From: Methanobacterium sp.
Lineage (GTDB): Archaea > Methanobacteriota > Methanobacteria > Methanobacteriales > Methanobacteriaceae
DNA: 64,000 bases
NCBI GenBank assembly: GCA_003166335.1
Contig: PMWA01000104.1
Coordinates: forward strand, 10,323-74,322
Direction of reading: 5' to 3'
The position numbers are program-made. Position 1 is the stretch's first letter; every line of letters starts with the position of its first letter. Shown here piece by piece: positions 46,001-52,000 of the stretch.

Positions 46001-49000
46001 TTTTCCGCTCTTTCCATATCCCGGTCATAAAAAAAATTTAGATCTACACCTAGCTTTCCTTCCACGGCAAAATTAGTGATTATATTAGCTATGGCGCCGC
46101 ATCCTAATATCCCTACCTTCATTTTGGATTTCTTCCTACTGGGGGAGTGTTGATGTTGATGTTTCAGTTATTTCAGGGCTTATTAGTAAAATATCCCCTA
46201 CAGCTTGAACTCTATCGTAGGCAACATCTATAGTTCCTTCTTCCTGTAAAGGTCTTATTTCATCTCTTTCTGGAACTATATTTATGGTTGTTTTTATAAC
46301 ATCTCTAAATCCAACGCTTTTTTTTTCATTGCTTGTTGCTACGGTTTTTAAAGTTGAAACTCTGCCCTTTTTGATATTTAGTACCACATCTTGGATTCTT
46401 CCAACATATTTTCCCCTGGTTGTATATACATCTAAATTGTACAGGGATGATAATTCTACCATTTTACCACCTATTTCTTTGTTGTTTGTATCTTTTCTAT
46501 CTTCTACTTAAAGAAGATTGCCCTTTAGAGCACTTATTATGTAACTAAATGTATAATGTAAAATATAATCAAATTATATCTAAATAAACTTAAAAATCTC
46601 CATAACACTTAAACTTTATGACCGAGAGGAGTCGATCATTTAAATAATATATAATATATATTAATATATAAGATTAATATATTACTTTAATATATTCAGA
46701 GAATTATAAATCGGAAGCTATTTTTTCTATAAAAATCATTTTTTTATTACAAACTTTTTGAAAAAATATATATAATGGAGGTAATCATATAGCAAGGTCT
46801 TTTCTTTCCGTAACAGATGTTACACAAAAAGAGCTTTACTACATTTTTGATGTTATCAAAACCCTTAAAAAATCCATAAAGGTGCGTAGACCACTTAAAA
46901 ACTTGGAACAAATGGTAGCTGGGCTACTTTTTGAAAAACCTTCCACACGTACAAGGACGGCCTTTGAAGTAGCTGTTCTTCGTTTAGAGGGGAAAGCAAT
47001 ATATTTAGCATCAGAAAATTTGCAAACAAGTAGGAACGAATCCATAAAGGATACTGCTCGAATTTTAGGTGATTATTTAGACATTATCATTGCCAGAGTT
47101 TACGAGCATAATACTGTCTTGCAATTATCGCAATATTCTAATATTCCGGTAATTAACGGTTTAAGTGATCTTGAGCATCCTACGCAAGCAGTAAGTGATC
47201 TTTACACCATCTACGAACGTCAAGGATCACTTCATGGTTTGAACCTAGCATATGTAGGTGATGGCAATAACGTTTGTAACTCATTGCTTTTAGGTGCAGC
47301 ATTGACTGGAATGAATATGACTGCAGCTTGTCCTCCGGGATACCAACCCCCAAATCAAATCGTGAAAAAAGCTATTGAAATGGGTAAATCAACTGGAAGT
47401 CAGATTTCGATTGTGGAGAATCCACAGAAAGCTGCTGGTAATGCAGATATTCTTTATACAGATGTATGGGTGAGTATGGGCGAAGATATAGAAAAAGAAC
47501 AACGTATCAAGGCTTTTCAGGGTTATCAGATTAATTCAGCACTTTTAGAAACGGCATCTTCAGGGGCAGTAGTNNGGCCGTTCAATGGTTTGGTCTCAAG
47601 CTGAAAATAAACTTTATAGTGCAGCTGGTATATTAGACTTCATTTGTAATGAAAATTAATATTTTAATAAGGTAAATAAAATGGCTGTAAAAGTAAATGC
47701 AGAATGGGATCGCTTAAAAAAAGTATTAGTCCACACACCAGGGATGGAAATGTATTTTGGGCTTCTTGACCCATATTCATCACTTTATGAAAGAGCTTTC
47801 AGCCAATCAGATGCATTGAGAGAACATGAACTTCTATTATACACATTAAAACATGAATTTAAAGTAGATGTGATTCCCCTCAAGGATACTATCATCTCTA
47901 ATGCCGAAAAAAGTACAGCTATTCGAGAGAAGTTAGTGAAATTTGCCCAGGATACTATCTCCCTTAATGGAAATAAACTGGAAGTTAAGCAAGCCCGGGA
48001 AGAAATGAATAAAAATAAGAATAAGTTAGATTCAGATTATTATTTCAATACGGTGCTTCTCAACCCCTGCATTGGATTAGAGTCAAGTGAAGGAATTAGG
48101 ATGATTCAGCTTAAGGTTACTGAAAGAGAACCTCTTTCTAACCTTTATTTTATGAGAGATCAGCAAACAGTGACTGATAAAGGACTAATAGTTTCAAAAA
48201 TGTCCAAACCACAAAGACAGAGGGAAACTCTCCTTACTAAATTTTTTTGGCAAATTCTCAAACAACCAATAGTTCATGAAATACAAACTCCAGGCACTTT
48301 TGAAGGTGGTGATTTCATGCCAATGGGAGAATTCGCACTGATAGGTATGGGGGATCGTACCAATCGAAAAGGAGTAGAACAAATGTTAGATCATGGTGTA
48401 GGGTACGATGAGATAGGTGTTGTTCACCAGCCTAATCATCCCCTTATACCTGGTGATAATAGAGATCCGATGGTGAATATGCATCTCGACACATACTTTA
48501 ACATAGTTTCTAAGGAAGTTGCAGTTGGTTGTGAACTTTTACTTGAAAATGCTTTGGTAGAAATTTATCATCAAAGTAATGATGGTTACATAAAAACTTC
48601 AGAAGAGATGAATCTTCGTGATTACTTAATATCAAAAGATTTTGATATTATCAACATTAAAACTTTGGAACAGATGGCTTATGCATCTAACTTTCTTTGT
48701 ATACGAAATGGAACTATCCTAGCAGTTGAAGTAGACCGTGTTGTAAAAAATGTATTAGAAAAGCTTAGAGCAAAAGCCATAACAGAACCATATCGATATA
48801 AAAAACTATTTAATCAGGCTAAGAAAGATTACCGGGAGCTTCGTTTGCAGGGACAATTCTTTCCTCACAAAAAGGAGATCTACCAGCACGATATAGATGC
48901 TTATCCGTTAAATCTGGTTAACCTTACTGGAGGATATGGTGGGGCTCATTGTATGTCATGTGCATTAAAACGTGGCTAAAAAAAATTAGAAAGTCCATTC

Positions 49001-52000
49001 ATTTAAACTAATTTGGGTTAAATCGATAAAATGGAGAAAATATGGAGATAGAAAAAGAATGAACAGAACTATGGTGGTTTCTTTAGGTGGAAATGCTATT
49101 CTCAAGCATACAGAAAAAGGTACAGCCCAGGAACAATTTGAAAATGTTAATGAAACCTGTCATTATATTTTAGAATTAATAAAGGAAGGTTATCATATTG
49201 CCATCACTCATGGTAATGGACCGCAGGTTGGTGATATTCTTTTGGCATATGATCTGGCTAAAAACACCCTACCTCCAATGCCTTTAGATGTTTGTGTAGC
49301 ACAGTCCCAAGGCATGATAGGTTATATGCTTCAATTATCTTTAAAAAACATGCTGAAGAAACTTCAAATGAATAAATCAGTGGTAACTCTGCTTACCCAA
49401 ACTTTAGTTCATCAAGAAGATTCCCAGTTTGAAAATCCTACTAAACCCATCGGTCCTTTCTACACGGCCTTAGAAGCAACAAAACTACGAAAAGAGCGAA
49501 ATTGGATTATTGTAAATGATAGTGGAAGAGGTTACCGAAGAGTAGTTCCTTCACCAATTCCAATAGGATTTGTTGAAGAAGGAAGTATTAAAACTTTATT
49601 TTTGGAAGGAACTATAGTTATAGCTTCTGGCGGGGGAGGCATACCCGTGGTTATAAAAGAGGATGGAATGCTTCAAGGTGTTGAAGGTGTGATAGATAAA
49701 GATCATGCCGCCTCCCATCTTGCATCACTAATCGAAGCTGAAATATTACTTATTCTTACTGATGTTGAAAAAATATCATTATATTATAATACTCCAAGTC
49801 AAAAATTTATAAATAAAATGACAACAACCCAAGCTAAAAAATATCTTAAAGAAGGCCAATTTCCTGAAGGAAGTATGGGACCTAAAGTAAGATCAGCAAT
49901 AAATTTCCTAGAGAAAGGAGGTAAAAAGGTAATCATAACTTCCTTAGGACATGCAGTTGATGCAGTGAAGGGTGATGCGGGTACTACTATTACTTTAAGT
50001 TAAAAAAAAATAAGAATTAATTTTTAAGGTGAATCAAAAAAATGTGGGATACTAGTAAAGATTACAGACTTTTGGTGGCAGAGAAATCAGTGGAACTATT
50101 CTTAAGAACTATTGAAGGGGCAAATTTTCAGGGAAAATGGAATAAAAAGAAAGCAGTAACTACTGCTCGAGATATGCTACCAGAAATACAATCACTTTAT
50201 TACAGCTATCTGACTCCAGAAGAAATCTCAAAAACACCCCAAATAAATTCTTTAGAAGAAAAGGTAAAAGAAATAATTAATGATCTAGGAGGCGAAGCAT
50301 GGTACCATCAATTTTTAGGATTTGTAAAAAGAGACGAGAAAAGTAAATTAGAGGAATCCATAGCTAAAATCAAATTTTTTATAAATACAATTTATGGCAT
50401 TAGAAGAAGATTATCTCTTGGAGAAATAAACGATCCCATAATAGGTATTGATATTAAAACAGGAATAGTTTCAAGTATAAGTAATCATCCTAAGATGAAT
50501 CAACTGCTTATATGTAATCTTAACTTGGGTAAGAGGGCCATAAAAGTAGTAACTAATGATTTAACTGTTAAAGAAGGTGATCATGTGGCATTAACATTAC
50601 TTCCTCCTGCAGAATTTTGTGAAACTACCAGTGAAGGCATGTTTTTAGGTGTAGATGGGAGAGTTTTGAAAGATGTAAATGGTGAACTTGGGAATATTCC
50701 TCACGGTATTCCACTTAAGGCTTTAAATGATACTCGAAACTTTGTGGAATCATTTTTAAATAAAAAATAGTAATTAATTTTTTTTTATAAAGAAATTTAT
50801 TTTAATTCATCCAATAATTACCAGTTTAGAACAGGTCATATCCTCCACCGCATATTTTACACCTTCTTTTCCAATGCCACTCATTTTAAAGCCTCCAAAA
50901 GGCATGTTATCTGTGCGAAAAGTTGATTCTTTATTTATAAGTACAGTGCCAGCATCTATAGATTTCACAGCTCTCTTAGCTTTCTCTATACTTTCTGTGA
51001 ATACAGAAGCCTGCAGACCATATGGTGTATGATTAGCCATTTTGAAAGCTTCATCAACATCATCAACTCTTATTATAGGTGCTATTGGCCCGAAAGTTTC
51101 TTTACATACTAATTCCATATTAGGGAATACTCTATCCAGAACTGTAGGCTCATAAAAGGCACCATTACGTTTCCCTCCACATAAAAGTTCAGCACCATCA
51201 TCTAAAGCATTATTTACTCTATTTTCAACTTTTAAAGCTGCTTCTTCATCTATTAATGGTCCAACATCTGTTTTTGAATTTAAGGGATCTCCCACCTTTA
51301 GTTTTTTGGTTTCTGACACTAATTTATCTGTAAATTCATCAAAAACACCCGTTTGGATGATAATTCTTTTTACAGCTATGCATACCTGACCAGCGAATAC
51401 ATAAGAACCTCTAACTGCAGCAGTAACTGCATTATCTATATTCGCATCATCTAAAATTACAAGAGGATCATTTCCACCTAATTCAAGTGTCAGCTTTTTA
51501 ACTCCTGCCTTTTGGGCAATGGACTTTCCCGTGGTAACGCTTCCTGTAAAAGATATTTTATTAACTAGGTTATTGGTAACCATTTCATCACCGATGACCA
51601 TACCAATTCCTGTTAAAGCGTTTAAAGCACCATCGGGCAGGTAAGGGGCCATTAATTTTACTAGCTTCAAAGCTGCTAGAGGAGCTTTATGTGATGGTTT
51701 TGTTACTACCGTATTTTTAGCAGCTATAGCTGGGGCTATTTTATGCATTGCTAAGTTTACAGGGTAATTAAAGGGAGTTATAGCACTTAACACGCCTACT
51801 GGTATTTTTATTGTGAATCCTAGGATTTTACTACCTCCAATACCAGCATCTAAGGGTATAGTTTCACCATATATCCTTTTAGATTCTTCTGCTGCAAATA
51901 ATAATGTATCCAATGAGCGTTCCATTTCAAATTTGGAGTCCCTGATGGGTTTCCCAGTTTCCTTAGTTATGATCGTTGCAAATTCATCTAGGCTTTTGGA

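Follow-up and report, generated by a model that had tools for sequence, protein, structure and literature searches.

A predicted arginine deiminase pathway in Methanobacterium, with an ornithine carbamoyltransferase that appears to have replaced the native argF

Three adjacent genes in the genome of a Methanobacterium sp. raise the question of whether a methanogen can draw ATP from arginine. The genes lie in a stretch of 64,000 nucleotides of contig PMWA01000104.1 (the window, to which all coordinates refer), from a genome in which mcrA is present. The first-pass annotation had assigned them, as a same-strand operon, to an ornithine carbamoyltransferase (OTCase), an arginine-deiminase-family enzyme and a carbamate kinase (CK). 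Reading of the sequence showed that the three genes do stand side by side on the plus strand (Table 1), with intergenic spacers of 21 bp between the OTCase and arginine deiminase (ADI) genes and of 79 bp between the ADI and CK genes.

Table 1. Features of the arginine deiminase locus and its flanks in the window.
Feature	Position	Strand	Remarks
PRC-barrel gene, upstream flank	46136..46462	-	Outside the pathway; kept in 6/6 long same-genus stretches with matching layout
Shine-Dalgarno-like GGAGGT	46777..46782	+	6 nt before the likely ATA start of the OTCase gene; motif and spacing kept in 7/8 subclade loci
Predicted arcB-type ornithine carbamoyltransferase	46789..47659	+	Likely ATA start; profile match, trees; sole OTCase of the genome
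Two-N assembly gap	47574..47575		Conceals about 58 bp of the OTCase gene, from alignment to L002
Predicted arcA, archaeal-type arginine deiminase, 432 aa	47681..48979	+	Pfam ADI, site residues, AF2 model and Foldseek
arcC, carbamate kinase, 314 aa	49059..50003	+	TIGR00746
tRNA-binding-domain gene, downstream flank	50042..50770	+	Outside the cassette

The dN/dS values of the three genes were 0.09, 0.12 and 0.12 (locus L096, which has frameshifts, was left out throughout, and L145, which has an ADI frameshift, was left out for ADI and CK). Purifying selection acts on OTCase, ADI and CK, and all three are real genes. A recent transfer judged by composition was rejected, the GC and GC3 being like those of the neighbours. 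The tRNA-binding-domain gene was placed outside the cassette because a pseudomurein-binding-repeat gene sits between it and the CK gene in four relatives. A scan of the locus for promoters and terminators gave a result at chance level (20 vs 18.1 expected), the model being bacterial and the host an archaeon.

The OTCase scored 317.6 bits on TIGR00658 (cut-off 280.85) despite its gap-shortened protein, in agreement with the equivalog assigned in the first-pass annotation, which was also right that the called start was too late and that the 3' end ran into an N. The start is likely the ATA at 46789; a start at GTG 46882 was rejected, as codons 2-31 show a dN/dS of 0.20. A genome-wide tally of codons located 6 nt past GGAGGT was too noisy to gauge the frequency of ATA starts. 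The frame picks up again past the two Ns and reaches a stop codon at 47657-47659, and a natural truncation was rejected, since alignment to L002 pointed to an assembly gap; two-N gaps account for 131 of the 141 N runs of this genome. The features that separate OTCases from putrescine transcarbamylases are a lysine two residues before STRT, an XSMG loop, HCLP and the lack of a C-terminal extension (PMC3282769). The enzyme carries KPSTRT and VSMG, its HCLP region falls inside the gap, and HCLP and a length of 308 aa are seen in relatives. The signature, as judged from sequence, is that predicted for ornithine and not for putrescine.

The deiminase gene scored 153.7 bits on Pfam ADI (PF02274; cut-off 22.8) and missed the arcA equivalog TIGR01078 (95 bits vs a cut-off of 489.1); the Fervidicoccus protein P0111 and L110 were likewise below TIGR01078, and L104 was not among the matches at E 1e-20. 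Its identity to characterised ADIs is about 19-25% (24.8% to Halobacterium salinarum ArcA, E 3e-30), and its best nine PDB sequence matches are all ADIs. The identity to ArcA, the PDB matches and the conservation of the ADI motifs reproduced what had been reported before. All 13 site positions checked, from the list in PMC3474736, are kept; each is unchanged in 88-89 of 89 homologs, and H. salinarum ArcA shares 12 of them. They include the catalytic positions C424, H268, E208, D160 and D270, identical in H. salinarum ArcA, and the predicted arginine-binding positions L35, N154, F157, R179, R226, M267 and G418, of which R226 is a lysine in H. salinarum. A Foldseek search with the AF2 model (pLDDT 92) gave ADIs at the top ranks (TM 0.70-0.73), with amidinotransferases at 0.46-0.49 and DDAH at 0.47-0.50. 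The model places helices 67-127 between modules 1 and 2 of the five-module fold, and a helical domain at this point is described, in the available text of PMC3474736, as an ADI feature missing from AT, DDAH and AgDI. Because the 13 site positions are kept and the modelled fold is ADI-like, the predicted deiminase is very likely a true ADI. The accessible part of Novak 2016 (PMC5052871) has archaeal and eukaryotic ADIs branching apart from bacterial ADIs, as an archaeal/eukaryotic clan; no assay on the clade of the present enzyme was found in the literature searched.

The CK scored 395 bits on TIGR00746 (cut-off 358.25), as expected from its earlier equivalog assignment. It is not required as a source of carbamoyl phosphate because carB is present, a point that had been made before and that holds; according to the sections of PMC13260591 available, organisms that have CPS use it, and not CK, to make carbamoyl phosphate.

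The ADI-like gene was found in 36 of 314 Methanobacteriaceae genomes (15/18 in genus g1 and 20/32 in genus g10), the same counts as previously given, and ADI and CK are confined to an identical 2 of the 27 genera of this family. The claim that the trait is limited to these two genera failed, as the ADI-CK pair is present in 21 of 22 Methanoculleus records; cultured holders of arcA+arcC include M. chikugoensis and M. palmolei. ADI and CK stand next to each other at 26 of 30 loci, and OTCase joins them at only eight; the conserved unit is ADI+CK, and the three-gene operon, correctly described for this genome, is a trait of its subclade. ADI+CK loci without a cassette OTCase rely on housekeeping argF. 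The coupling of ADI and CK is not strict, because three genomes (G061, G070 and G074) have CK but no ADI, and two (G064, 93% complete, and G054, 77%) have ADI but no CK. Among wider archaeal loci, CK was inside the fetched flanks in 62 of 79, and the OTC-ADI-CK order was also found in L153, L154 and L166, preceded in the latter two by an APC permease. The 21 Methanobacteriaceae ADIs in a tree of close relatives formed one clade (99), divided by genus. For the g10 neighbour protein P0124, the best ESM Atlas match was 0.81, which is a lead only.

A genome-wide search found no second OTCase, which bears out the statement that this one is the only one. Trees, from which L151 (long branch) and 11 near-duplicates had been dropped, showed that it clusters with arc-cassette OTCases, with a 100/100 separation from 15 native argF. 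Its grouping with same-genus argF was rejected (p-AU 4e-93); the monophyly of all Methanobacteriaceae OTCases stood unrejected in the AU test (p-AU 0.20), with only three outside OTCases in the tree. The native argF was absent from the purD-argS site in this genome and absent in all four of the other subclade genomes, argJ, argG, argH and carB were retained in this genome, and carB and argJ were present in 5/5 genomes tested. Judged by these trees and gene contents, the operon OTCase is an apparent arc-cassette xenolog standing in for the native argF, which was deleted; this is a new finding. Since the native argF was deleted while argJ, argG, argH and carB remain, one OTCase must serve both arginine synthesis and breakdown, and the replacement presents a natural case of one enzyme working in both directions in an arginine prototroph. 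An archaeal OTC-ADI-CK cassette may have entered once, in the ancestor of g1 and g10, after which two OTCases would have been redundant; the cassette OTCase would have been lost in most descendants and the native argF lost instead in this subclade, where the single arc-type OTCase would also have to act anabolically.

We consider it reasonably probable that the locus encodes a working arcB-arcA-arcC arginine deiminase pathway, which would be an auxiliary route from arginine to ATP and ammonia and not a growth substrate. ADI would convert arginine to citrulline and NH3, OTCase would convert citrulline to ornithine and carbamoyl phosphate, and CK would convert carbamoyl phosphate to ATP, NH3 and CO2, for one ATP per arginine. 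The route could run on outside arginine entering by general APC permeases, or on protein turnover under H2 starvation, and would yield maintenance ATP and ammonia beside methanogenesis; growth on arginine alone would not be supported. Resynthesis of arginine costs about four ATP equivalents vs one recovered, and the cycling of endogenous arginine is therefore a net ATP loss. The earlier claim of a complete pathway serving as an energy source thus stood for the full enzyme set and was overstated for energy, given this loss and given that no antiporter, regulator or physiology was found. Amino acids are said not to support methanogen growth in the available text of bioRxiv 2024.08.21.609014, and no ADI physiology in a methanogen was found in the titles and abstract openings of the literature searched.

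The search for transport and regulation showed that an ArcD antiporter was not found (DcuC or NhaC family matches in 0/5 genomes), that the ArcD and ArcR of H. salinarum have no match in this genome, and that no pathway regulator was found. This genome has four unlinked APC permeases, of which two were scanned and both were under the curated cut-offs of the antiporter models. The two tested APC families are spread over 6 and 10 genera (70 and 74 of 314 genomes), ADI-free ones included, and a dedicated antiporter among them was rejected, as they do not track ADI. Cyanophycin as an internal arginine store was also rejected, no TIGR02068 match being over the cut-off in 5/5 genomes, with a weak control (0/14 controls passed). 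Six peat RNA runs contain 0.40-0.84 of the ADI-CK words, RNA contigs that are silent on strand and level and may reflect DNA.

A bolder extension, which we regard as possible but doubtful, is that hydrogenotrophic methanogens of two orders (the Methanobacteriaceae genera g1 and g10; Methanoculleus and its kin) gain substrate-level, methanogenesis-independent ATP by fermenting arginine, whether imported or recycled, for survival or slight growth without H2, and that the subclade's foreign OTCase, throttled by its ATA start, switches direction. It is rather unlikely that the identical chemistry was selected for ammonia, as a nitrogen source in N-poor peat and soil or as a cytoplasmic pH buffer in acid peat, with ATP as a by-product. 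The 20/20 runs holding the stretch are peat metagenomes (10 of them marked as samples from which this DNA may come), and ADIs of this clade are frequent among Thermoplasmata, Micrarchaeota and Marsarchaeota; however, CK is kept next to ADI under purifying selection, and the Methanoculleus records that keep the pair (21/22) include many digester-type hosts. Ammonia is usually plentiful in the digester-type habitats of many Methanoculleus. Roles of the pathway in pH and acid survival are given in PMC11032458 and PMC5473848.

Anabolic salvage appears improbable. Under this reading, ADI and OTCase would convert surplus arginine to ornithine and carbamoyl phosphate, feeding the synthesis of pyrimidines, the cyanide ligands of [NiFe]-hydrogenase, proline or polyamines at a saving of ATP, and CK would only drain excess carbamoyl phosphate or make it from ammonium. 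Such a role was demonstrated in Thermococcus, for its parallel ArcE pathway (available sections of PMC13260591), and PMC11032458 puts it forward for organisms with ADI; the lone OTCase has to be able to work in anabolism, and CK outlives ADI loss in three genomes. However, carB and argJ are in all five genomes tested, and CK is unneeded for salvage, yet most loci pair ADI with CK and not with OTCase. A different guanidino substrate for the deiminase (methylarginines, agmatine), or amidinotransferase activity, would be allowed by its identity of only about 19-25% to characterised ADIs and by the 'amidinotransferase' label on some homologs. Either is very improbable against the invariance of both carboxylate-binding arginines and of amino-binding L35, N154 and G418, the ADI-specific helical domain of the model, the ornithine signature of the partner OTCase and the Foldseek scores.

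An auxiliary arginine route would hint that some methanogens may draw a little energy from the amino acid arginine. An ADI route kept by Methanobacteriaceae of peat and soil and by cultured Methanoculleus species makes the amino-acid limit on methanogen growth testable and, if true, bears on the survival of H2 starvation by methanogens, on peat nitrogen cycling and on the ATP-boosting of methanogens, as already done in acetogens. The surprise is capped because the ADI pathway is textbook knowledge and the Methanoculleus genes were already tabulated.

Comparison with arcRACB-arcD of H. salinarum, which supports fermentative growth on arginine, showed that ADI, CK and OTCase are clustered in both, that the shared ArcA site positions include the Tyr before GxxHCM and that the CKs are 43% identical, whereas the ADIs are just 25% identical and the order is A-C-B there and B-A-C here. 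H. salinarum also has ArcD and ArcR; the present host, a methanogen, is autotrophic and has the complete pathway of arginine synthesis. The bacterial-type ADIs (TIGR01078; Pseudomonas, Mycoplasma and Streptococcus structures) share the fold and the catalytic and binding residues with the present enzyme, which differs from them by its TIGR01078 score (95 vs 489) and by an extra helical segment at about residues 350-400 of the model. Clostridium autoethanogenum reportedly uses the ADI pathway as an ATP supplement. The engineered Acetobacterium woodii is, like this host, an energy-limited H2/CO2 autotroph, with substrate-level ATP from arginine (available text of PMC7793690); the pathway was shown physiologically in acetogens and, in the literature searched, in no methanogen. 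The first-pass annotation had called the trait absent from the literature, which agrees with Table S1 of Michimori 2024 (KEGG-based; PMC11032458) in that arcA is listed for 0/11 Methanobacterium genomes, but the same table gives arcA+arcC for five Methanoculleus genomes and for Methanofollis aquaemaris. Methanogen arcA+arcC is only tabulated there, and the available main text neither discusses nor tests it in methanogens. The ADIs of these methanogen hosts are of one clade with the present ADI (51-54% identical) and are adjacent to CK, whereas OTCase is missing from the fetched flanks in 22/22 Methanoculleus records. The ArcE pathway of Thermococcus kodakarensis is likewise archaeal, uses OTCase and CK and supplies ATP, ornithine and carbamoyl phosphate, but has another first enzyme, and its hosts mostly lack argG/H and CPS, both of which are present in this Methanobacterium genome.

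By enzyme content the window operon encodes, as the first-pass annotation proposed, a complete arginine deiminase (ADI) pathway: ADI, ornithine carbamoyltransferase (OTCase) and carbamate kinase (CK) are all predicted intact, the set required to convert arginine to ornithine, 2 NH3, CO2 and 1 ATP (1 ATP per arginine; PMC3474736, accessible part). The genes are separated by 21 bp (OTCase-ADI) and 79 bp (ADI-CK) and are flanked by genes for a PRC-barrel protein and a tRNA-binding-domain protein. Pooled dN/dS was 0.09 for OTCase (8 loci) and 0.12 for both ADI and CK (7 loci each), L096, and L145 for ADI and CK, being omitted for frameshifts. 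The genome (G000) is 99.4% complete and carries mcrA; among named records, those of Methanobacterium/Methanobacteriaceae are the closest to it.

Genes of the operon in window coordinates
Gene	Position	Strand	Profile match
OTCase	46789-47659	+	TIGR00658, 317.6 vs 280.85 bits
ADI-family gene	47681-48979	+	Pfam ADI
CK	49059-50003	+	above TIGR00746 cut-off

The deiminase was compared at the catalytic and binding residues listed in the accessible part of PMC3474736. L35, N154, F157, D160, R179, E208, R226, M267, H268, D270, G418, C424 and Y419 were unchanged in 88-89 of the 89 homologs (one of the rows is truncated), so that this divergent enzyme does keep its catalytic motifs. Comparison with Halobacterium salinarum ArcA showed 12 of 13 site residues to be identical against an overall identity of 24.8%, the full-length value reported before. 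The AF2 model (pLDDT 92) contains the ADI-specific helical domain and gave TM scores of 0.70-0.73 against ADIs, 0.46-0.49 against amidinotransferases and 0.47-0.50 against DDAH. The protein falls below the TIGR01078 cut-off, as do other archaeal members, and in public databases homologs carry the label 'arginine deiminase family protein [Methanobacterium sp.]'. Residues and model together indicate that it is very likely a true ADI.

The OTCase frame is open from an ATA at 46789, 6 nt after GGAGGT. This arrangement was present in seven of the eight subclade loci with OTCase, the eighth having ATT at this position and an in-frame ATG 5 codons upstream. In-frame ATG, GTG or TTG codons upstream of the ATA were absent in four loci and unconserved in the other four, and codons 2-31 were under purifying selection (dN/dS 0.20). 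Because the GGAGGT arrangement is conserved, no alternative start is conserved and these codons are constrained, ATA is well supported, short of proof, as the start codon; gene callers miss it, and the called start is indeed too late. An out-of-frame ATG overlaps the GGAGGT motif (window 46777-46791; L001-L008). The 3' end does meet an N gap, as described earlier, but the gene does not end there: the NN at 47574-5 conceals about 58 bp and the frame continues to a stop at 47659. G000 has 131 such two-N gaps, each of which may hide tens of bases; at another, two ORFs (window 37203-38484, minus strand), presumably MmgE/PrpD-like, look like one gene split by assembly.

Of 314 Methanobacteriaceae genomes, 36 had ADI and 37 had CK, both restricted to the same two (g1 and g10) of 27 genera; the count for ADI agrees with that first given. 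Among the best 30 loci, ADI has CK next to it in 26 and OTCase in just 8, each of which shares at least 86% identity with the window; within this set the proposed three-gene operon is thus a trait of the window's subclade, the others being mostly ADI+CK only. In sister genomes of the same genus this site is occupied by ADI+CK but lacks OTCase. Three g10 genomes (G061, G070, G074) have CK without ADI, and in the G061 locus (L090) ADI is missing between flanks that bracket it in L076; CK, retained in this way, may serve a separate function. At G088:C5:228405-230441, ADI and CK matches are interrupted by numerous stop codons, through either decay or an assembly error. A GTDB scan, which drew on the same collection and overlaps these sets, gave 79 loci: 13 OTC+ADI+CK, 49 ADI+CK and 17 ADI alone (some ended by contig ends). 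Restriction to two methanogen genera, claimed earlier, did not stand, since Methanoculleus (22 records, 21 of them with CK next to ADI and none with OTCase in the flanks), Methanoregula and Methanothrix also carry ADI loci; further hosts were Theionarchaea, Thermoplasmata, Micrarchaeota, Marsarchaeota and one Asgard record. The window's gene order recurs in L153, L154 and L166, with an APC permease ahead in L154 and L166. Divergent from ADI in nine g10 stretches is a protein of about 460 aa (L085:6715-8088, minus strand) without Pfam or NCBIfam match and with a weak transglutaminase-like lead (score 0.8). G062:C1:852864-853823 is a stand-alone match to cyanophycin synthetase model positions 156-470 (E 1e-79, below cut-off).

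The OTCase, the sole one in G000, has the ornithine and lacks the putrescine signature (criteria from the accessible part of PMC3282769). OTCase matches occur in 302 of 314 Methanobacteriaceae genomes, singly in nearly every one, and the window type is about 46-53% identical to native OTCases, same-genus ones included. In a 22-row tree it joined the arc-cassette OTCases of L136, L154 and L166, apart from 15 native argF (100/100), and a 34-row tree gave the same pattern. Forced grouping with same-genus argF was rejected (p-AU 4e-93), ruling it out as that native gene; forcing all Methanobacteriaceae OTCases together was not rejected (AU test, p 0.20). Both flanks of 8 of 10 native argF loci map to neighbouring purD and argS in G000, whose gap (C119:45861-45918; about 55 bp, no N) retains no trace of the deleted argF. 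A native argF query matched only arc OTCase and ATCase in the four other subclade genomes (4/4), and gave a 65% identity match in sister genome G046. The sequences thus indicate that the arc OTCase replaced native argF in the subclade. A quick tree placed 21 Methanobacteriaceae ADIs in one clade (SH-aLRT 99), divided by genus. A single gain of the OTC-ADI-CK cassette would have been followed by reciprocal loss of whichever OTCase was redundant; OTCase gained separately, later than ADI-CK, is a conceivable alternative.

We infer the direction and purpose of the pathway, which is probably auxiliary ATP and ammonia from arginine. Resynthesizing arginine from ornithine takes about four ATP equivalents, of which carbamoyl-phosphate synthase (CPS) and argininosuccinate synthetase use two each, so a net gain requires external or turnover arginine and tight control. 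That methanogens gain arginine-fuelled ATP is put forward tentatively, as somewhat doubtful. Ammonia supply or pH control as the main purpose is rather unlikely, with an acid-survival role of the pathway on record (PMC5473848, accessible part). Anabolic salvage is improbable. With CPS present, CK is most simply read as catabolic. argJ, argG, argH and carB were above cut-off in 5/5 genomes tested, which bears out the CPS gene noted earlier, and CPS presence implies that CK is not the carbamoyl-phosphate source (PMC13260591, accessible part). Beside the invariant site residues, a deiminase substrate other than arginine is very improbable. One may speculate that the ATA start holds a single two-way OTCase below ADI and CK levels.

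No ArcD match was found with family profiles in five genomes, nor any ArcD or ArcR match with H. salinarum queries against G000, in line with the reported lack of an antiporter beside the operon. G000 has four APC permeases unlinked to the operon; the two scanned were not assignable to a substrate and their families do not follow the ADI distribution. ADI is immediately preceded, in three g10 loci, by an APC permease and an M42 peptidase encoded on the other strand. An APC permease adjoins carB in G000 (C45:9734-14541), G058 and G056, and its family has two matches in all 8 subclade genomes; it is a candidate arginine/ornithine carrier. In six peat RNA runs (5 studies), 0.40-0.84 of the ADI-CK words were recovered, which, these being assembled contigs, indicates presence only.

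The literature searched (few subscription papers; MAG-paper supplements outside scope) yielded no work on how ADI functions in any methanogen. The claimed absence from the literature holds for function and fails for gene content: the accessible part of Michimori 2024 (PMC11032458) lists both arcA and arcC in 5 Methanoculleus genomes and in Methanofollis aquaemaris, only arcC in M. lacus and arcA in 0/11 Methanobacterium genomes, leaves methanogens out of its main-text discussion, and counts as arcA the Fervidicoccus fontis and Micrarchaeum A_DKE proteins, close relatives of the window ADI. Its Table S1 gives Methanothrix soehngenii and Methanosaeta harundinacea arcC+arcE, a second arginine-to-ATP route in methanogens. 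Methanogens may be among the figure labels of the archaeal-eukaryotic ADI clan in Novak 2016 (PMC5052871, accessible part). New, as far as searched, are Methanobacteriaceae as a host family and, as predicted here, the arc OTCase in place of argF and its non-canonical start codon. According to the accessible part of Sattler et al. (bioRxiv 2024.08.21.609014), growth of methanogens on amino acids is not known, and glycogen breakdown gives Methanosarcina maintenance energy, therefore a precedent for non-methanogenic maintenance metabolism; arginine boosted engineered A. woodii (PMC7793690, accessible part).
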